Origin: an uncultured Planctomycetales bacterium
Lineage (GTDB): Bacteria; Omnitrophota; Gorgyraeia; Zapsychrales; JAHFFX01
NCBI GenBank assembly: GCA_964612665.1
Contig: CAZTCI010000002.1
Location: 432,334 to 496,333 of the forward strand
Length of the DNA: 64,000 bases
Direction: 5' to 3'
Positions within the stretch are counted from its first letter, which is position 1, and each line of letters begins with the position of its first letter. The position numbers were made by a program, and so were the translations under genes. The notes beneath the pieces are model-generated. The model made no database searches. It was not told where the DNA came from and saw nothing but the letters and a program-made list of their open reading frames with translations. Below are positions 12,349-61,680 of this stretch, one piece after another.

Positions 12349-12478
12349 AATTATTTCCTTGCTGTAATTATAGCTTAAAGTTTAAAGTATACGATTTTCA
12401 ATTTCATTTTTTTAATAATGCTTAATCAATGATACACAAGGCATCAAAATACTAACCAAAACGCCCAGGAATATAATC

Positions 12479-12703
12479 ATTAACGCCGTGTGCGAGTTTC
12501 AATAAAGCAAACCTTTGAGTTTCAAAAGATCACGGTTTAATTCCAAGTTCAAAAAGATACCACAGGTATTTACGAATAAGGCGGTTGCTCAAATGCCACA
12601 GGCGCCCTCCTTTCGTTTTGGGTTACTTTAGTCAGTTCCCATTTTAGCGTTAGGAGGGTTTCTTTTTTACTTTATTCAGGAAAAACTCGCACACGGCGTT
12701 AAT
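12479..12703. mobile_element. 225-bp non-coding element bounded by perfect 21-bp inverted repeats (MITE-like or IR-flanked sRNA locus) between phoU and phoR
   Basis: ATTAACGCCGTGTGCGAGTTT at 12479-12499, exact reverse complement at 12683-12703; no ORF; internal CCCTCCT/AGGAGGG stem followed by a T-tract. Confidence 0.5.
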
Positions 12704-12755
12704 TGTTAAATAAATATTATGATTTAATTAAAAAATTTAATGTTTGGATAGGAAT

Positions 12756-17414: not shown

Positions 17415-18347
17415 TTAAGCTTTGGCTAAAGTCGGATTTGATTTTGACGTCACGGACCAAATCAAAAGTCGGGCCACGACATTAACCACAATTGAAACGA
17501 CTAACAACACCAATCCAATTTCCATTAAAGCTGATTGATATAATTTTGTTGTTGCTTCTGCAAATTCATTGGCAATAACACTGGCTAACGTATAACCAGG
17601 AGAAAATAACGATGCTGAAATTTTAACGTTATTGCCGATGATCATGGTCACCGCCATCGTTTCTCCGATTGCCCGTCCTAACGCCAAAATAATGCCGCCT
17701 AAAATTCCTGGTTTGCCATAACTTAAAATAATGCCGCGCAATGCTTCCCATCGCGTTACGCCCAATGCGTACGCGGCTTCTTTATAAACTTGAGGGACTG
17801 CTAAAATAACTTCTCGCGAGACAGAAATAATAAATGGAACAATCATGATCGCTAAAATCACGCTGGCCGAAAGAATTCCGACGCCATAATTAGGTCCATG
17901 AAAAAATGGTAAGAACCCAAAACATTTTCCTAGAAAAGGTTGAACATGCAGACGCATAATTGGAACTAAAACAAATATGCCCCACAACCCATAAATGACA
18001 CTGGGGATCGCAGCCAAAAGATCAATCAGCATCGAAACAATTTTACGGATTTGGACTGGCGCGTATTCAGCTAAATAAATCGCCGCGCCCAAACCGATTG
18101 GGATCGCCAGTAAAAGTGCAACGATCGATGATACGATCGTCCCAAAAATAAAAGGCAGTGCACCGAAATTATCAAAAACCGGGTCCCAGGTCTGCGTGAT
18201 CAAAAATTGTAAACCGAATTTTTGTAAAGAAAGTTCGGATGTTTTGAATAATTCAAAAAATATTCCACCGACGATAAGTAAAATCAGGCAAGGAAAAATA
18301 CTAAGAATTCTTTTAAAAATAATATCGCCGGTATCGTGTCTGGTCAT
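17415..18347 (-). CDS. pstC: Phosphate ABC transporter permease PstC
   Basis: Six-TM permease with a PstC-like sequence. Confidence 0.85.
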   Translation of the reverse strand: MTRHDTGDIIFKRILSIFPCLILLIVGGIFFELFKTSELSLQKFGLQFLITQTWDPVFDNFGALPFIFGTIVSSIVALLLAIPIGLGAAIYLAEYAPVQIRKIVSMLIDLLAAIPSVIYGLWGIFVLVPIMRLHVQPFLGKCFGFLPFFHGPNYGVGILSASVILAIMIVPFIISVSREVILAVPQVYKEAAYALGVTRWEALRGIILSYGKPGILGGIILALGRAIGETMAVTMIIGNNVKISASLFSPGYTLASVIANEFAEATTKLYQSALMEIGLVLLVVSIVVNVVARLLIWSVTSKSNPTLAKA

Positions 18348-18380: not shown

Positions 18381-18477
18381 GATTTAACGCGAATCATCGC
18401 AGATTACACACCGATTATCGCAGATATTAATTGAAATCTGCGTGTATATATGTGCCATCCGCGAGGATCCGCGTTAA
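18381..18477. repeat. Palindromic intergenic repeat element, copy A (pstC-pstS spacer)
   Basis: GATTTAACGCGAATCATCGCAGATTACACACCGATTATCGCAGAT ... AATCTGCGTGTATATATGTGCCATCCGCGAGGATCCGCGTTAAA. Confidence 0.75.
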
Positions 18478-18491
18478 AAAAGTTTTCAACA

Positions 18492-19499
18492 CTATTTAAC
18501 TTGATCAAGTTTAGCGTCAATCATACTAACGACGGCTTTAGGTAACGGGGCGTAATACAAAGCTTCAGTGTACTTTTGTCCATCGTGAATCGCCCAGCGG
18601 ATAAATTCCACAATGGCTTTTCCTTTAACGGCGTCATCCATTTTCTTATAAATCAAAAGCCAGGTAAACCCACTGATTGGATAAGCAGCGGCATTTGCGC
18701 TGTTGACCAATGACACCCGGAAATCAGCCGGGATAGTGACACCTTCAGCAGCTTTTGAAATACTTTCCAACGAAGGTTCAATAAATTTACCAGATTGATT
18801 TTGAACATAAGCATATCCAAGATCATTTTTAATGGCATAAGAAAATTCCACATAACCAATGCTTCCATCGGTTTGTTTAACCAGCCCAGCCACGCCTTCG
18901 TTACCTTTACCACCTAATCCCGTCGGCCAATTGACCGAAGTTCCTTTACCAACTTTTGATTTCCATGCGCCGCTGACATTGCTAAGGTAATCGGTAAAAA
19001 TATAAGAAGTCCCGCTTCCATCAGAACGATGAATGACGACAATCGCCTGGCTGGGTAGTTTAACGTCGGGATTAGAAGCTTTAATCCGTGCATCGTTCCA
19101 ATCTGTAATTTTTCCCAAGAATATATCAGCGATAACATCGGGCGTTAACTTCAAGCCTTTTTCAACACCGGCAACATTGTAAGTTACGACAACAGCTCCC
19201 ATGACCGTTGGGATATGATAGATCCGGCCCGGAGCTTCGGCTAACTGTTCTTGAGTCATTGGCCCGTCGCTGGCACCGAAATCAACGGTCTTAGCCGTGA
19301 TTTGTTTAATGCCGCCGCCGGAACCTATTGATTGATAATTAAAACGCACTTCGGGATTGATTTTCGAATAAACATCGAACCATTTTGAATAAATCGGATA
19401 CGGAAAAGTAGCGCCCGCGCCATTAATTAAAACCGGCGCTGCCATCACGTTCGTGGCCACGGCAAGTAACATAACAGTAGCTAAAATTTTTTTAAACAT
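18492..19499 (-). CDS. pstS: Periplasmic phosphate-binding protein PstS
   Basis: Signal peptide, GAGATFPYPIYSKW...SGTSY motifs. Confidence 0.9.
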   Translation of the reverse strand: MFKKILATVMLLAVATNVMAAPVLINGAGATFPYPIYSKWFDVYSKINPEVRFNYQSIGSGGGIKQITAKTVDFGASDGPMTQEQLAEAPGRIYHIPTVMGAVVVTYNVAGVEKGLKLTPDVIADIFLGKITDWNDARIKASNPDVKLPSQAIVVIHRSDGSGTSYIFTDYLSNVSGAWKSKVGKGTSVNWPTGLGGKGNEGVAGLVKQTDGSIGYVEFSYAIKNDLGYAYVQNQSGKFIEPSLESISKAAEGVTIPADFRVSLVNSANAAAYPISGFTWLLIYKKMDDAVKGKAIVEFIRWAIHDGQKYTEALYYAPLPKAVVSMIDAKLDQVK

Positions 19500-25423: not shown

Positions 25424-25733
25424 GGTAGTTAAGAAATTGTAGTCGTTCGTTCTTTAACTTTTAAAAAGGTAAACTACTTCGAAAGAGTAGGACCCCTGAA
25501 CCACGTTCGGTTTCAGGGCTTTGAACTTTTCTAGTTCAAAGCCCGTGAATAATTCGTGGGACAGGGCCCTAAACCCAACGTAGTTTAGGGACAAAGCCGT
25601 GAGCCTAATTTTCTTTTATAGAAATATGGTTGTCTGGCTGCCGTTGTCGATAACGTGATATCGATTGTTTTGGTAAGCACGGGTTCTTGGTCCCTTCTTT
25701 CGAAGTTCAATACCTTAAAAGGGGATTAAGAAA
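25424..25733 (+). promoter_or_regulatory. Highly structured 5' leader, candidate riboswitch with c-di-GMP-I (GEMM)-like P1 (GNRA) and P2 (tetraloop-receptor) pieces split by about 95 nt of extra hairpins
   Basis: At least 6 consecutive hairpins; G-U wobble pairs form only on the plus strand. 25467-25493 resembles the GEMM 5' half (GGUAAACUACUUCGAAAGAGUAGGAC); 25588-25629 resembles GGGAC-AAAGCC...CCUAA...UAUGG. Confidence 0.35.
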
Positions 25734-46664: not shown

Positions 46665-47054
46665 ATGTTCTCTAAAGAATGGATGAATACGCTAAAAAAA
46701 TATTGTTTGGTAGGAACGTTCACCCTGTTAGCTGGCTGCGCGACTATGAGCCCGGTGGTTACCGAAACCGAATCAGGCAATAAAAATTTATCTGTTGAAA
46801 ATATTTTGAAAATTGAAAAAGGCAAGACAACCAGCGAAGAAATCAAAAAGTTATTTGGAGAGCCAGATTTAAAGTACGAAAATGCTTCCGATAAATCGAC
46901 ATCTTGGGTCTATGATTATTCAAAAACTCGTAAACGCAGTATGGAGCGCGCGCCCTTCGCCATTGATCAAACCCAACTAGAAATCACCTTTAACAACGAC
47001 GGCATTGTTAAAGAATATACTCACACGGTTTCCAATAAGACAAAAAAAGATTAA
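46665..47054 (+). CDS. bamE: BamE/SmpA/OmlA-like outer-membrane lipoprotein
   Basis: Lipobox LLAGC; GKTTSEEIKKLFGEPD resembles the BamE G-T-x-x-V-x-x-L-G-P motif. Confidence 0.55.
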   Translation: MFSKEWMNTLKKYCLVGTFTLLAGCATMSPVVTETESGNKNLSVENILKIEKGKTTSEEIKKLFGEPDLKYENASDKSTSWVYDYSKTRKRSMERAPFAIDQTQLEITFNNDGIVKEYTHTVSNKTKKD

Positions 47055-47071
47055 ACTCGAATTAAGTACAA

Positions 47072-47106
47072 TAAAAAAGCCAAGCAATTTGCTTGGCTTT
47101 TTTATT
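47072..47106. terminator. Bidirectional Rho-independent terminator
   Basis: AAAAAAGCCAAGCAATTTGCTTGGCTTTTTT: perfect 9-bp stem flanked by A- and T-tracts. Confidence 0.85.
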
Positions 47107-47131
47107 GTGTAATCCTTTAAAAACTTTATCT

Positions 47132-47509
47132 TTAATCGCGAGCGGCAAAGCGCTTGAACTTCAACAGCACTTCAAGAACTTGAACATTTATCAACACAAA
47201 AAATAAAGTCAAAAGTGAAATTTCCAGAGGATGCATTTGCAGAATGTTATGTATAGCTAAATGAGATCCTTTAAGTTTTGGCTGCAACGAAATGGCCAAT
47301 TGATTAATAAAAATACCCAAAATAAGACCCGTTGCCCAAAACCCTCCCACAATTCCGAGTCCTAGTCCTACTTGAGAACGGACAAAACGCCAGCGCTTTC
47401 GGCTGCTTTTACCGGATATCGTCTTAATCAATTCATTAACTGGCATAACAAAAACACTTAAAAGGTAAAAAATCCCTCCAATACCTGTTCCGGGAATTCC
47501 TGCGACCAT
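47132..47509 (-). CDS. Small membrane protein (GtrA/DUF2062-like) downstream of the GT2 gene
   Basis: 125 aa, 4 TM, 2-nt gap to the GT2 gene. Confidence 0.4.
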   Translation of the reverse strand: MVAGIPGTGIGGIFYLLSVFVMPVNELIKTISGKSSRKRWRFVRSQVGLGLGIVGGFWATGLILGIFINQLAISLQPKLKGSHLAIHNILQMHPLEISLLTLFFVLINVQVLEVLLKFKRFAARD

Positions 47510-53144: not shown

Positions 53145-54065
53145 ATGGAAATCTATTTAGCGCGCACGCAAGGATTTTGCGCAGGTGTCGCCAGCGCCGT
53201 TGAGATCGTCGAACGGGCCCTGCAAAAATATGGCGCCCCTCTCTATGTTTTTCATGAAATTGTTCATAACACCTTTGTCGTGGCCGATTTTCGAAACCGC
53301 GGCGTCATTTTCGTGGATGATTTAAGTGAAGTGCCGGATAATGAACGCGTAATTTTTAGCGCGCACGGTGTTTCACCCAGTGTCTTGACTGAAGCCAAAC
53401 GCAAAAATCTCAAATTTATCGACGCCACCTGTCCTCTCGTCACCAAAGTCCACCGCGAAGCCATCACCTTTTCTAAAAAAGATTACGAAATCGTTTTAAT
53501 CGGCCACAAAGGCCATCAGGAGTTAATCGGAACCTCCGGTTATGTCGCGCCTCACCTCCTGCATATCGTTGAAGATGAAGCCGACATTGAACAATTGAAC
53601 ATTGATCCTTCCCAAACCGTCGGCTATTTGACGCAAACCACTCTTTCCGTCACTGAAACTCAAGGTTTAATCAAAAAACTTAAAAACCGTTTTCCAAAAC
53701 TAATCGCCCCGCCCCGCGAAGATATTTGCTACGCGACGCAAAACCGGCAGGACGCGGTCAAAGAATTGGCCCAACTCTGCGACATCATTATTATCTGCGG
53801 TTCGCCGAATAGTTCCAACAGCAACCGTCTGCGCGAAACCGGCGAAGAAGAAAATGTCCCGAGCTATATTATAGATTCGGCGGATGAACTTGACATGAAA
53901 CTTTTAAACGGCAAAACCAAAGTCGGTATCAGCTCCGGTGCTTCTGTGCCGCGGCATATTGTTGATGAGTTGGTGAACCGTATTAAAGAATTTTTTCCCG
54001 GAACGATGGTGAACACTTTTCCAGATCCTGAAAAAAATATTCACTTTCAACTTCCGGCGATTTAA
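53145..54065 (+). CDS. ispH: 4-hydroxy-3-methylbut-2-enyl diphosphate reductase IspH (LytB)
   Basis: Three conserved Cys (C12, C96, C195 regions) and LytB-like sequence, 306 aa. Confidence 0.92.
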   Translation: MEIYLARTQGFCAGVASAVEIVERALQKYGAPLYVFHEIVHNTFVVADFRNRGVIFVDDLSEVPDNERVIFSAHGVSPSVLTEAKRKNLKFIDATCPLVTKVHREAITFSKKDYEIVLIGHKGHQELIGTSGYVAPHLLHIVEDEADIEQLNIDPSQTVGYLTQTTLSVTETQGLIKKLKNRFPKLIAPPREDICYATQNRQDAVKELAQLCDIIIICGSPNSSNSNRLRETGEEENVPSYIIDSADELDMKLLNGKTKVGISSGASVPRHIVDELVNRIKEFFPGTMVNTFPDPEKNIHFQLPAI

Positions 54066-54080
54066 TTAGAAAAATTTTCC

Positions 54081-54335
54081 ATGGCCAAATTCATTCTCGA
54101 TAACATCGAATATGATCTCCCCGACGGCACGGCGCTGGCAGAGACTTGCGAAAAAGCCGGCGTTCCTTTTAGCTGTAATTCGGGCGTCTGCGGGACCTGC
54201 CAGATTGAGATCTTGGAAGGTTCGGAAAATCTTTGTGAACTAAACCAGGAAGAAAAAGATTTAGGTATGGATCAAAACCACCGCTTGGGCTGTCAGTGTA
54301 AAATCATTCAGGGGATTGTTAAAGTTAAGTTTTAA
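54081..54335 (+). CDS. [2Fe-2S] ferredoxin (plant/adrenodoxin-like fold), 84 aa
   Basis: C-x4-C-x2-C ... C pattern (CNSGVCGTCQ ... LGCQC). Confidence 0.75.
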   Translation: MAKFILDNIEYDLPDGTALAETCEKAGVPFSCNSGVCGTCQIEILEGSENLCELNQEEKDLGMDQNHRLGCQCKIIQGIVKVKF

Positions 54336-54348
54336 GTTTTAATTTATA

Positions 54349-54452
54349 AAACGCGGATTTACGCGGATTGCGCACAGATCAACGCAGATATGAAAAATAT
54401 TTTTAAACCTATCTGCGACCATCCGTGTGTAATCCGCGTAAATCTGCGTCAA
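54349..54452. repeat. Palindromic intergenic repeat element, copy B (fdx-moaE spacer)
   Basis: AAACGCGGATTTACGCGGATTGCGCACAGATCAACGCAGAT ... inverted copy ATCTGCGACCATCCGTGTGTAATCCGCGTAAATCTGCGTCAA. Confidence 0.8.
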
Positions 54453-54467
54453 TTTTTGTTTTCAATT

Positions 54468-54923
54468 ATGTTTAAACTCTCCTCAACCCCGTTAGAAAAT
54501 CTTCCCTTAAATAAAGGCCTAAGCCATCCAGCCAACGGCGCGATTGTTGGGTTTGAAGGTGTGGTGCGCAATCATCATCAAGGTCAAAAAGTCGTGGCGT
54601 TGGAATATGAGGCTTTTGCAAAATTAGCCGATAAAGAAGCGAAACGGATTTTGATGGAAGCTAAAAAAAAATTCGATGTGACGGCTGTCCAATGTTTTCA
54701 CCGCGTTGGGAAATTAAAAGTCGGTGACATGGCCGTGTGGGTTGGCGCCGGCGCCGCTCACCGCGATGAAGCCTTCAAAGCCTGCCGCTACACCATCGAT
54801 GAAATCAAAAAACGCCTGCCGATTTGGAAGAAAGAATATTATAAAAACGGGGATTCGGGTTGGGTGAATTGTAAATTAAGTGGTTCAAGAAATAAACGCG
54901 AATTATCGCAAATTACACACTAA
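54468..54923 (+). CDS. moaE: Molybdopterin synthase catalytic subunit MoaE
   Basis: VGFEGVVRNHHQG...ALEYEAF...WVGAGAAHR; start at the ATG at 54468; last about 10 codons lie inside repeat copy C. Confidence 0.8.
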   Translation: MFKLSSTPLENLPLNKGLSHPANGAIVGFEGVVRNHHQGQKVVALEYEAFAKLADKEAKRILMEAKKKFDVTAVQCFHRVGKLKVGDMAVWVGAGAAHRDEAFKACRYTIDEIKKRLPIWKKEYYKNGDSGWVNCKLSGSRNKRELSQITH

Positions 54924-54990
54924 TCTCGCGAATTTTACGATTGAACGATTCGCGTTTATTCGTGTGTAATTCGCGATAATTCGCGTTCAA
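54894..54990. repeat. Palindromic intergenic repeat element, copy C (moaE-ATR spacer)
   Basis: AAACGCGAATTATCGCAAATTACACAC ... GTGTGTAATTCGCGATAATTCGCGTTCAA. Confidence 0.8.
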
Positions 54991-55006
54991 ATCTTTTAAT
55001 AATCTT

Positions 55007-55567
55007 ATGAAGAAAATTTCCATCACAACTAAAACCGGCGACAAAGGTTACTCTCACCTTTTCTCGGGCGAACAGGTTTTAAAAAATTCATCACGCCTGG
55101 AGACTTATGGGGATTTGGATGAACTGGTGAGCTTTCTAAGCATTGCCCGACATGCGGTTCAAAATACAAATTTAAAAGAAGATATTCTCTGGATTCAGCA
55201 AACTCTCTTTACCGTCGGAAATGAATTGGCGACAACCCAAGGAAAATTGCACAAGCTTAAAAAACGCATCGATACCAAGACAGTTGAGAAAATGGAAACG
55301 AAACGGCTCGCGCTGGAATCTCAAGTAGAAGTCCCTGACAATTTTGTGATTCCTGGAAATACAATAGCCGCCGCGTATCTCGATTACGCCAGGACAATTT
55401 CCCGTCGGCTGGAACGAAAAGTCGTTGACTTAAACGCCCAAAAAGAAATCGACAATAGCTTTCTATTAATTTGGCTGAACCGTTTGTCTGACTATCTCTA
55501 TTTAATGGCGCGGCTGGAAGAAAAAAAGCCGCTCTTGGTCAATTCACTCGATCAATTGAATTATTGA
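55007..55567 (+). CDS. PduO-type ATP:cob(I)alamin adenosyltransferase
   Basis: ITTKTGDKGYSHLFSGEQV...ETYGDLDELVSFLSIAR matches the Cob_adeno_trans signature. Confidence 0.85.
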   Translation: MKKISITTKTGDKGYSHLFSGEQVLKNSSRLETYGDLDELVSFLSIARHAVQNTNLKEDILWIQQTLFTVGNELATTQGKLHKLKKRIDTKTVEKMETKRLALESQVEVPDNFVIPGNTIAAAYLDYARTISRRLERKVVDLNAQKEIDNSFLLIWLNRLSDYLYLMARLEEKKPLLVNSLDQLNY

Positions 55568-59534: not shown

Positions 59535-60835
59535 TTATACTCCGTAAAGCTTGTTCCTAAAAGTTTATTAATTTTTGCAACGATAGACGCATGTTCAATC
59601 CGGTTTAAAATGTCGTCGACAAATCCGCGCGCGAGCATTTTGACGGCGATGTCCCGGGGAATACAACGCGTTTCCAAATAAAAAATTTCATCTTCGTTAA
59701 GCTGGCCAATCGTGGCGCCATGGGTGCATTTGACGTCGTCGGCAAAAATTTCGAGCTGCGGTTTGGTGTCGGCGCGGCAATTCGAACCTAACAGTAAATT
59801 TTTATTAAGCTGATAAGAATTGGTTTGCTGCGCTTCACGGCTGACTAAAATCTTTCCATTAAAAACCGCACGCGAGGCGCCGTTTAGGATTCCTTTATAA
59901 AGCTGGTTACTCGTGCAATTCGGCGGGCGATGTTCGACACAAGTGTGATTATCCACGTGCTGATTGTCCGCGACGGCGTAAAGCCCGTTTAAAATCGAAT
60001 TGGCTCCGGAACCATTTAAAACAATATTTAAATTATTACGAGTGAGCATCCCGCCTTTTGTCATCGAAAATGAATTAAGCTGGCTGTCGCGTTCTTGCCA
60101 AATCCGCGTCGTGCCAATATGAAATGATTGAAGACTCTCGCCCTGTGCCTTGCAGTATAAAAGATTTGCATTTTCCGCGAGATGAACATCCGTCAAACAA
60201 TCGGCAAAATAAACAGCTTGGCCAAATGAAATATGACTTTCCAAAATGTGCGCCTGCGCCGATTCTCCGAGGAGAATAACCGTCCGTGGCGCAGTAACAA
60301 TTTGTTCATTCGTACTGGTGACATGAACAATATGTATCAAGGGAGCGATGTTCACTTTGGCTTCAACTTTCACAAAAGCGCCATCACTGATAAGCGCTTT
60401 GTTAAGCGCGACAAACGCGTCTTCGGTGCTGTATTTTTGAGATAATGCGGCGATTTCTTTTTCAAATGAAACAGCGGCTTCACTTAGATTAAGAACCGTA
60501 ACACCTTTGGGAAGGGTTTTGATTTGAGAAAACTCGGCGTTAAAAACACCATTTACAAAAACAAGATTAATTTCTTTGGGGTCGCAATAATCTTTGAGCG
60601 CGTCTTTTTCTAAAATCTTTTGTTCTGTTGAAATAACAAATCGAGAGTTGGCGATCGGCTTGACATTCGTGTATTTCCATTCTTCATCTTCCAGCGTCGG
60701 GAAACCCAGCTCACGGAAACGGTTTAATCCAGCATTACGCCAATCAGCAAAGAGCGCGGATTTATTTTTATTCTTTTTTTCAAATGTTTCCCAACCTTCA
60801 ATCAAGGTTGATAATGGATCTGACTTCACAATCAT
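59531..60835 (-). CDS. sufD: Fe-S cluster assembly protein SufD
   Basis: SufBD beta-helix domain; start at the ATG at 60835 (MIVKSDPL), leaving repeat copy D in the sufC-sufD spacer. Confidence 0.8.
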   Translation of the reverse strand: MIVKSDPLSTLIEGWETFEKKNKNKSALFADWRNAGLNRFRELGFPTLEDEEWKYTNVKPIANSRFVISTEQKILEKDALKDYCDPKEINLVFVNGVFNAEFSQIKTLPKGVTVLNLSEAAVSFEKEIAALSQKYSTEDAFVALNKALISDGAFVKVEAKVNIAPLIHIVHVTSTNEQIVTAPRTVILLGESAQAHILESHISFGQAVYFADCLTDVHLAENANLLYCKAQGESLQSFHIGTTRIWQERDSQLNSFSMTKGGMLTRNNLNIVLNGSGANSILNGLYAVADNQHVDNHTCVEHRPPNCTSNQLYKGILNGASRAVFNGKILVSREAQQTNSYQLNKNLLLGSNCRADTKPQLEIFADDVKCTHGATIGQLNEDEIFYLETRCIPRDIAVKMLARGFVDDILNRIEHASIVAKINKLLGTSFTEYK

Positions 60836-60860
60836 AGTTTTTCCTTTAAGAAAAATAGGC

Positions 60861-60930
60861 AACGCGGATTGCACACGGATTTACGCAGATGTATTGAATC
60901 TGCGATCATCTGTGTGTAATCCGCGTTAAA
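60861..60930. repeat. Palindromic intergenic repeat element, copy D (sufC-sufD spacer)
   Basis: AACGCGGATTGCACACGGATTTACGCAGAT-GTATTGA-ATCTGCGATCATCTGTGTGTAATCCGCGTTAAA. Confidence 0.8.
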
Positions 60931-61680
60931 TTAAGTTAACCAATCATAACCCTTCTCCTCAACCTGTAGGGCCAGTTCTTTGCCGGATGAGCGGACGATT
61001 TTTCCTTTATGCAGGATATGGACAAAATCCGGGACGATATAGTTGAGCAGTCGCTGATAATGGGTTATCAGGATAATGGCGTTGTTTTTATTTCTTAGTT
61101 TGTTAACACCTTCGGCGACGATTTTCATAGAATCGATATCCAACCCCGAATCGGTCTCATCCAAAATCGCTAGACGTGGATTTAAGACAGCCATTTGCAG
61201 GATTTCGTTGCGTTTCTTTTCCCCGCCGGAAAAATCCACATTGACTGGACGGTTGATAAATTTTTCATCCATATTTAGCAGCTTCATTTTTTTACGCAAA
61301 TAGGTGTCGAATTCAATCGGGTCCATTTCTTCAGCGCCTTGATGTTTGCAAATCGCATTAAAAGCCGCACGCAAGAAAACCGCCGTATTAACACCAGGAA
61401 TCTCAACGGGATATTGAAAGGCCAGAAAAACGCCTTCACGCGCCCGTTCATCAGCATCAAGTTCTAGCAGATCAATCCTTTTAAAATTGACTTCATACTG
61501 CATTGAACCTTTTGTTACTTGATAATCTTTATGACCGGCCAACACTTTCGCCAATGTACTTTTCCCAGAACCGTTCGGTCCCATAATGGCATGAACTTCA
61601 CCGGCGCCGACTTCCAAATTAATCCCATTAAGAATTGGGGTTTCATTGATACTCGCGTGCAGATCTTTAATCTCTAACAT
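60931..61680 (-). CDS. sufC: Fe-S cluster assembly ATPase SufC
   Basis: MLEIKDLHA start at 61680 with a GAGGGAG RBS; Walker A GPNGSGKST; LSGGEKKR. Confidence 0.92.
   Translation of the reverse strand: MLEIKDLHASINETPILNGINLEVGAGEVHAIMGPNGSGKSTLAKVLAGHKDYQVTKGSMQYEVNFKRIDLLELDADERAREGVFLAFQYPVEIPGVNTAVFLRAAFNAICKHQGAEEMDPIEFDTYLRKKMKLLNMDEKFINRPVNVDFSGGEKKRNEILQMAVLNPRLAILDETDSGLDIDSMKIVAEGVNKLRNKNNAIILITHYQRLLNYIVPDFVHILHKGKIVRSSGKELALQVEEKGYDWLT

Follow-up and report, generated by a model that had tools for sequence, protein, structure and literature searches.

Palindromic repeats in operon spacers as probable gene-less members of a GxxExxY nuclease cassette family of Candidatus Omnitrophota

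Repetitive extragenic palindromic (REP) sequences and their doublets (REPINs) are known from Enterobacteria and Pseudomonas, have a GTAG-type head, and go with the RAYT transposase, a Y1 HUH enzyme of the IS200/IS605-like type. Homing endonuclease genes and inteins place a small nuclease gene in sense between or within conserved genes. Rickettsia palindromic elements (RPEs) were reportedly described by Ogata et al. in 2000, and we know of no gene-bearing form of them. Here we describe four palindromes, copies A, B, C and D, that lie between genes of a 64-kb stretch of contig CAZTCI010000002.1 ("the window", meaning that whole stretch), together with a nuclease-bearing cassette of other genomes with related arms. 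A sequence-only reading of the window had likened the palindromes to REP sequences or bacterial interspersed mosaic elements (BIMEs), or to Correia-type elements. This likeness stands as regards their possible behavior in mRNA and fails as regards membership, the associated gene encoding a PD-(D/E)XK protein of the GxxExxY type and not a RAYT or DDE transposase. [quoted passage not shown]

The long cassette of this family measures ~465 nt and consists of a GxxExxY PD-(D/E)XK gene of 125-135 aa between two arms with four heptamers each, the start arm and, in inverted orientation, the end arm. At loci L067, L072, L172 and L174 the arms are 385-392 nt apart and enclose the nuclease gene; the enclosed open reading frame (ORF) of L067 and L072 matches PF13366 PDDEXK_3 (E=2.5e-31) and TIGR04256 GxxExxY (E=1.4e-30). 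The ATG of the gene lies within the start arm (..CACAGATGGTCGCAGAT), where caCAGATGGTCGCAGAT encodes M V A D, and its stop codon (..AAATCTGCGTAA/TGA) lies within the end arm's first heptamer. Full 4+4 arms are present both at L172, where the cassette sits between mlaF and mlaD, and at L174, where it follows two T2SS-F genes. L175 carries the gene twice within 2 kb in a glycosyltransferase / radical-SAM cluster, with a heptamer at the TTG start and further heptamers past the stop. In all five cases (5/5) the cassette gene is oriented in sense within the operon. A protein search returned 515 close homologues, labeled mostly Omnitrophota, and among the best 120 a heptamer-encoded N-terminus (MVADK, MNADK, ..TQMVADK) is found in 64 and a heptamer-encoded C-terminus (..KSA, ..LRKSALDLRESA) in 76.

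All four window palindromes are present where they had first been placed, with shifts of a few bases at most (Table 1). The core they were said to share, ACGCGGATTACACAC, has seven matches with up to 3 mismatches against 1.1 expected, a number reached in 0 of 100 shuffles, and a sharper 18-mer pattern, CGCRRATTRCACACNRAT, has seven matches in the window with up to 2 mismatches against 0.10 expected. A repeat finder sorts the four copies into direct and inverted families, and when the 64 kb are scanned for heptamers C[AG]CN[AG]AT that cluster at a spacing of 8-14 nt, arms turn up at these four sites only. A covariance model run with filters off recovers the four loci at E<=1e-14 and no fifth copy in the window; it was built from 24 family members including the window copies, and speaks only to the lack of a fifth. 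One Logan assembly from this organism stops at 54986, within copy C, as is expected of a multi-copy repeat. SufC and PstC identical to those of the window are found in the Logan assemblies of SRR12313477-79, and their nearest named homologues, at 71-83% identity, are from Candidatus Omnitrophota/Omnitrophica. The best non-member match of the model (15.9 bits, E=0.13) is an AT-rich hairpin at 47049-47122, between convergent genes at 46665-47054 (plus strand) and 47132-47509 (minus strand), and is probably a bidirectional terminator.

As the sequence-only reading had proposed, each copy consists of two half-copies inverted around a short spacer. The loop between the arms is 7-21 nt in the window copies, and the right arm of copy A, at ~18436-18477, is decayed. 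The arms are more regular than that reading had suggested, and follow the layout H1-3nt-H2-4nt-H3-3nt-H4, in which H is CRCRRAT, with a period of 10-11 nt, a middle spacer t[ag]ca, and the ends AACGC...GCGTT. The heptamer variants in the window are CGCGGAT, CGCAGAT and CACGGAT, with CGCGAAT/CGCAAAT throughout copy C. Comparison of 14 arms from one metagenome-assembled genome (MAG) gives an identity between copies of 97-100% at heptamer positions and of 44-58% in the 3-nt spacers, and the spacers of the two arms are frequently not complementary to each other; the conserved unit is therefore the heptamer and not a continuous stem. Compensatory A-U/G-C changes between the arms do exist, albeit tracking the heptamer variant of the whole genome, and so they are no independent proof of selection for pairing.

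Alignment of copies A to D, decomposed into their units, with 20 elements of other genomes runs across all heptamers. The window arms share 23-35 identities over 30-40 positions (70-88%) with the start arms of gene-bearing elements, the copy A arm being identical at 29-34 of 40 positions and copy B at 30-35 of 40 (L067, L072, L172 and L174). On its minus strand copy B retains a remnant of the cassette start codon, ATGGTCGCAGAT (plus-strand 54411-54422), and copy D on its minus strand retains ATGATCGCAGAT (ATGATC); an ATGGTC start remnant ahead of the last heptamer is found in many short elements, copy B included. Long and short forms are found together in one MAG (L072 with L055/L090), and probably also in the single-amplified genome (SAG) AM-311-N09, where the short copy L042 would share the genome with the GxxExxY protein P0005. 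On the strength of the shared arms, the start remnants, this coexistence and the arm identities, the short elements, which keep both arms with 2-27 nt between them, would be internal-deletion derivatives in the manner of MITEs and REPINs. At L072 2526-2914 the GxxExxY gene is frameshifted (two tblastn pieces, a 75-aa ORF), which indicates that cassette genes decay in place. Other Omnitrophota GxxExxY clades (L067 100-700; L175 7990-8600) have inverted arrays of ACGCTAAA-type and CACAGAT-type units, and there are hints that protein and repeat covary.

The sufC-sufD junction offers an orthologous site with and without the element. This spacer is 95 nt in the window, 13 nt in L184, and 12 nt in Omnitrophica WOR_2 RIFCSPHIGHO2_01_FULL_48_9 (L195/L196), a presence/absence polymorphism in which the window site is filled and the sites of both relatives are empty. 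Both relatives are syntenic with the window, and L184 has a SufC that is 85% identical and shares the order Nfu-Rrf2-sufBCDSU. The additional block, 60846-60930 (85 nt), is placed between the sufC stop codon (60931-60933) and the ribosome-binding site of sufD, and is bordered by a 5-nt direct repeat, CTTAA. The outer ~20 nt of element flanks are AT-rich, and in the MAG RVF170221_bin_270 conserved extra inverted repeats are present and the full element is ~145 nt. We note that the sufB-sufC spacer of L184 (9879-10000) is 122 nt vs 28 nt in the window and holds an imperfect palindrome (..CGTCATTCTGAGGCCGATAGGCCGAAGAATCTC..), possibly of a different repeat family. A 418-aa SufC-like ORF, P0121, on an ENA contig of 2682 nt, outscores the exact 249-aa SufC, and may be a read-through or fusion across a neighboring junction in a close relative.

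Table 1. Coordinates of the palindromes, neighboring genes and related features; positions are those of the window, except for the two Gemmatirosa loci.
Feature	Position	Strand	Description
Copy A	18381-18480		Palindrome in the pstS/pstC spacer; left arm 18386-18425, 4 heptamers
pstS	18492-19499	minus	Gene beside copy A
pstC	17415-18347	minus	Gene beside copy A
Copy B	54345-54455	minus	4+4 heptamers; arms 54350-54389 and 54411-54450; loop 54390-54410
Copy C	54890-54992		4+4 heptamers; arms 54895-54933 and 54948-54987; moaE/adenosyltransferase gene spacer
Copy D	60846-60930	minus	3+3 heptamers; arms 60861-60890 and 60898-60927; sufC/sufD spacer
Spurious ATG	54390-54392	plus	In the loop of copy B; gene callers' moaE start, giving a 177-aa product
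moaE, true coding sequence	54468-54923	plus	151 aa; PF02391 E=3.6e-35
Element-encoded MoaE tail	54894-54923	plus	KRELSQITH (54894-54920) and TAA stop (54921-54923)
Adenosyltransferase gene	55007-55567	plus
sufD, probable start	60833-60835	minus	ATG after AAAGGAAAAACT; 434-aa gene call on L182
Gemmatirosa palindrome loci	L185 785-875; L186 701-773		9-nt heptamer period
Unrelated element	12471-12711		183 nt enclosed by inverted repeats of 29 nt with 90% complementarity; between two minus-strand genes

Copies B and C flank moaE, and both had been thought to contribute coding sequence to it. For copy C this is correct; copy B contributes none, the ATG in its loop being spurious, as had already been suspected, even though the gene call on L001 accepts it (177 aa). 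A start at 54468 is favored by the orthologues, 12 of 14 of which have an ATG at the aligned first residue (MF[QK]LS..), and by the in-frame stop that several of them carry 0-2 codons upstream of this ATG. At the other end the last nine codons of moaE fall within copy C's left arm, and the repeat supplies both the C-terminal tail and the stop of the protein, as had been predicted. Homology of MoaE stops at residue 136 (..GDSGWVNC; tblastn), beyond which the orthologues extend for 3-9 variable residues, and the KRELSQITH tail is in none of them. The moaE and adenosyltransferase genes overlap by ATGA in several relatives, whereas in the window they stand apart with copy C between them. The orthologue set comprises 80 metagenome loci with MoaE identities of 52-70%; no element was found in these 80 loci, which are too distant for an exact empty-site comparison. 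At sufD, the GTG at 60874 given as the start in the ORF list falls within copy D, and a start at 60835 fits the N-terminal alignment with sufD of L184. Inserted palindromes may in this way incidentally donate start codons, tails and stops, with the MoaE tail as an example.

When 185,579 species genomes, that of the window not being among them, were searched for ATTRCACACNRATNNNCGCRRAT, 90 loci were obtained, about one third of which are chance matches in coding sequence. The window architecture of 4+4 heptamer palindromes is found in ~15 Omnitrophota MAGs and SAGs and in MAGs labeled Planctomycetales or Planctomycetia, and RVF170221_bin_270 alone has at least 10 copies. CACGAAT variants are present in a KSB1 MAG and an Omnitrophica WOR_2 MAG. 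The elements are found in either orientation relative to transcription, and the 19 sites that could be classified are divided into 15 between co-directional genes, three between convergent genes and one between divergent genes; 15 of 19 is close to a rough expectation for bacterial gene pairs. Matches from Bacteroidales and Bacteroidota were rejected as family members, since they belong to a different composite repeat with one homologous arm only. This repeat is ~200 nt long and present in high copy in Bacteroidales Tobar18m-G2 and Bacteroidota Y22_30dBSd2.bin.61 (L004, L006, L010, L013, L016-L018, L020, L022, L023 and others); its opening arm has family-like geometry (CGCTAAT, CTCTAAT, CACCAAT and CGCGGAT, separated by tt, taca and taa), it continues as short tandem repeats TAATTCG and CATCA(T/C)CGC, and no GxxExxY gene is found near it. 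Six pattern matches on viral contigs are all chance matches without a palindrome, the phage collection yielded no GxxExxY homologue, and nothing in the plasmid collection matched copy B at the DNA level.

All four window copies lie within operons between co-directional genes, as the sequence-only reading had stated: pstS-pstC (copy A) and sufC-sufD (copy D) on the minus strand, and fdx-moaE (copy B) and moaE-adenosyltransferase (copy C) on the plus strand, at distances of 3-35 nt from the flanking stop and start codons. Its expectation of mRNA stem-loops agrees with RNA folding, which predicts a long hairpin for every copy on either strand, with energies between -36 and -58 kcal/mol and z-scores between -5.8 and -11.5. 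Transcribed with their operons, the palindromes would form interrupted hairpins of 30-40 bp, possible elements of mRNA processing or stability and substrates for RNase III-type enzymes. Positions of this kind and hairpins of this stability are also what would be seen if the palindromes were stem-loops selected by the host, acting in cis in operons as stabilizers, processing sites or translational decouplers, with their likeness to the GxxExxY flanks secondary; Correia elements, moreover, are RNase III substrates in mRNA (PMC10969869), and two relatives have unrelated long hairpins at pstS-pstC. We regard this explanation as unlikely, as it does not account for conserved heptamers with free spacers, for the ATGGTC remnant, or for the gene-bearing form, the empty sufC-sufD spacers of relatives function without a hairpin, and the elements occur in both orientations and in some cases between convergent genes. 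As to the pstS-pstC spacer itself, the hairpin of L193 (2896-3000) has a 30-bp perfect stem and a T-run and that of L194 (1215-1296) a 19-bp stem, neither being related to copy A. This suggests that a hairpin after pstS is under selection, and with unrelated hairpins at the same junction in two relatives copy A may serve a host function there.

PDDEXK_3 is listed as a family of unknown function that has undergone multiple transfers (Steczkiewicz et al., PMC3424549). An AlphaFold2 model of the GxxExxY protein has the canonical PD-(D/E)XK fold at a mean pLDDT (predicted local distance difference test) of 90, and its closest solved folds, lambda exonuclease and Cas4 SSO0001, both with a template-modeling (TM) score of ~0.5, are generic PD-(D/E)XK relatives; a sequence search of the PDB with the protein gave no match. 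Residues D72, E82 and K84 are invariant in GxxExxY proteins and form a motif of the metal-dependent DNA-nuclease type, and since these catalytic residues are invariant, the protein is expected to be an active nuclease. We infer that this nuclease would recognize the heptamer arrays and that, acting in trans, a copy located elsewhere in the genome could mobilize both long and short forms. The sense orientation within operons may allow the promoter-less cassette gene to be expressed.

Gemmatimonadota, Spirochaetota, Fusobacteriota and Patescibacteria also have CRCRGAT heptamers next to their GxxExxY genes. On plasmid 1 of Gemmatirosa kalamazoonensis KBS708 a CGCGGAT 3+3 palindrome is located ~20 nt 3' of the GxxExxY gene (437260-437652), and because the two ~1-Mb plasmids (NZ_CP007129, NZ_CP007130) carry such palindromes at no more than 7 and 10 places, this adjacency is unlikely to be due to chance. 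Treponema saccharophilum has inverted CACACGGATTCG / CGAATCCGTGT on either side of its GxxExxY gene. The regularity of the arms could alternatively reflect a double-stranded DNA array bound by a nucleoid or regulatory protein of the host, with CRCRRAT once per helical turn and no relation to mobility, and the 10-11 bp period and the conservation of heptamers next to free spacers are as such an array would have them. It is nonetheless a very improbable account of this family, given the 9 bp period in Gemmatirosa, the GAAT/AAAT heptamers of copy C within the same genome, a copy number and a presence/absence pattern that are those of a repeat family, and sites downstream of or between coding regions with no promoter enrichment. 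The same lack of promoter enrichment led us to reject a promoter reading of the copies.

A GxxExxY profile search of 1.84 billion representatives returned 12,522 clusters at 50% identity. The best 150 of these are made up of 60 stand-alone, 30 tandem and 60 fused to neighbors, and in 29 of the 60 fused clusters the GxxExxY domain is nested in frame inside a conserved protein. Seven clusters have it in one and the same loop of LepA and seven at one site of RecG between helicase motifs; further hosts are GatB, GT2, GT1, transketolase, RtcB and Asn synthase (nested-domain proteins P0364, P0367, P0370, P0374, P0378, P0394, P0405, P0414, P0417, P0418 and P0438). The junction peptides of the nested domains are heptamer-encoded, and a GatB of Candidatus Paceibacterota (L197 1501-3447) contains H-3-H-4-H-3-H arms together with another arm that stands alone within the ORF. 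One nested Candidatus Paceibacterota protein is annotated merely as 'GxxExxY protein'.

Predicted folding of the long-form RNA pairs the arms in both the minimum free energy and the centroid structure, as four helices split by 3x3 loops that close a 390-nt loop and have the AUG at the helix edge; such pairing may limit expression or permit processing by RNase III. This structure, with the start codon at the helix edge, would also suit an RNA element resembling an intervening sequence (IVS) or intron, in which the arms form a stem excised by RNase III or the encoded nuclease and the short copies are the ORF-less version. Intervening sequences of rRNA come with and without an ORF and have complementary borders and RNase III excision (PMC4990558), the cassette gene is sense-oriented in all of its operons, and splicing endonucleases are among the weak fold matches. 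Even so, we think this origin quite improbable: the short copies occur in both orientations, the catalytic motif is of the metal-dependent DNA-nuclease type, and in LepA, RecG and GatB the nested copies leave the reading frame of the host protein uninterrupted across both arms, a sign that the insert is translated and not removed as RNA. Excision would account for tolerance of the insertions and not for their spread.

In their workings the elements are nearest to the REPIN/RAYT and MITE/IS pairs, those of other phyla resemble RPEs or inteins in behavior, and the long form is similar in structure to rRNA IVSs with an ORF; each of these systems has a defining feature that is missing here. With REP sequences and REPINs they share short, dispersed, imperfect palindromes in many intergenic copies, doublets that form long hairpins, and a gene flanked by the same repeats inverted, the repeats being non-autonomous. 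They differ in that the repeat-flanked gene is PDDEXK_3 / GxxExxY and not RAYT at five loci, in that each arm is an array of four heptamers over 40 nt, with AACGC ends, whereas REP is a single hairpin with a GTAG head, and in that the gene starts and stops inside the arms and is multi-copy in some genomes (L175). The resemblance to MITEs and Correia elements (PMC10969869) lies in a length of 70-150 nt, terminal inverted repeats, the lack of a gene of their own, insertions that are polymorphic among relatives, hairpins that are co-transcribed and are potential RNase III substrates, and donation of coding sequence. However, the long relative here carries a PD-(D/E)XK gene and no DDE transposase, the inverted repeats are internally periodic, and the TA duplication is not seen, with a 5-nt CTTAA repeat at one site in its stead. 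RPEs (PMC10969869) likewise join ORFs without destroying them, as copy C does in giving MoaE its tail, and the in-frame cassette or solo arm in Patescibacteria GatB, LepA and RecG is similar, although the window elements are essentially intergenic. The 23S rRNA IVSs (PMC4990558) have in common with our elements insertion in a transcribed unit, complementary stem-forming borders, versions with (~430 nt) and without (~100 nt) an ORF, an ORF of unknown function, and a sporadic distribution. Their ORF is the S23p four-helix bundle, whereas that of the cassette belongs to another family, and all sites here are between or within protein-coding genes, not in rRNA, with a stem that is predicted only. 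Recurrent insertion at the same site, as in LepA and RecG, recalls homing endonuclease genes and inteins, but there is no Hint or splicing domain here, and inverted heptamer arms with abundant gene-less derivatives are not a feature of those systems.

Several other identities were considered for the palindromes and rejected. Searched whole at the gathering threshold, the window gives a single Rfam match, elsewhere in the sequence, and in both regions searched permissively the only matches are generic miRNA hairpins of 20-31 bits, the thresholds being 58-211. A consensus scan of 54000-55300 for intrinsic terminators flags neither copy B nor copy C whole, its one small match being at chance level (1.8 expected). 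CsrA-type GGA sites do not fit, as many copies carry AGAT, GAAT or AAAT in place of GGAT, and the integron attC site fits poorly, with ends that are not consistently RYYYAAC/GTTRRRY and four units per arm against two boxes. The Rfam match is a c-di-GMP-I riboswitch aptamer, RF01051, at 25555-25645 on the plus strand (35.7 bits, the gathering score being 35), in a gap with nothing obvious downstream on that strand. An element at 12479-12703 had been suggested as a possible relative of the family; it proves unrelated, having no heptamer periodicity, being missed by the covariance model, and giving no Rfam match. With the boundaries given in Table 1, it has no second copy in any fetched locus, its interior contains a hairpin, GCCCTCCT...AGGAGGGT, followed by a T-run, and it may represent another kind of MITE or else the gene of a small RNA.

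Several observations weigh against membership in a nuclease-mobilized cassette family. No GxxExxY gene is present within the 64-kb window, a consistent target-site duplication was not found in the flanks of 27 elements, and CTTAA at the lone filled/empty comparison could be microhomology. Arrangement varies across phyla: the whole palindrome is downstream of the gene in Gemmatirosa, the GxxExxY flanks of Fusobacteria ZRK30 are direct repeats containing ATCCGTG, and those of Persicobacter show nothing obvious. The heptamer period is 9 nt in Gemmatirosa vs 10-11 nt in the window family, which weakens a strict helical-phasing model. The nuclease, moreover, could be cargo rather than the mobilizing enzyme. 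We found no papers in open-access text that link GxxExxY/PF13366 to flanking repeats or that describe such Omnitrophota repeats. More tentatively, and with somewhat less than even confidence, we propose that GxxExxY/PF13366 genes, inverted CRCRGAT arrays and the gene-less derivatives make up a class of selfish mobile element, not described before and present in several phyla, whose nuclease would recognize its own arms and which would invade operon spacers as well as in-frame surface loops of essential proteins (LepA, RecG, GatB and RtcB).

In the window, the four palindromes place stable hairpins between cistrons, split the overlap of moaE with the adenosyltransferase gene, give MoaE a new tail, and introduce misleading start codons. 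The elements separate gene pairs that are translationally coupled, such as moaE and the adenosyltransferase gene, and may in some cases have been co-opted as inter-cistronic hairpins, as at pstS-pstC. For Omnitrophota and candidate phyla radiation genomes, the family would account for annotation errors such as wrong starts (moaE, sufD) and contig breaks, as well as for odd tails (MoaE, and the 'NADK..' and '..LRKSA' termini) and fused or 'nested' proteins. The GxxExxY family, which is large and has no function listed, would gain its first concrete functional lead in the form of a defined DNA motif and MITE-like derivatives. The pairing of nuclease and CRCRGAT arrays is a testable hypothesis, for which the cultured Gemmatirosa kalamazoonensis is at hand.

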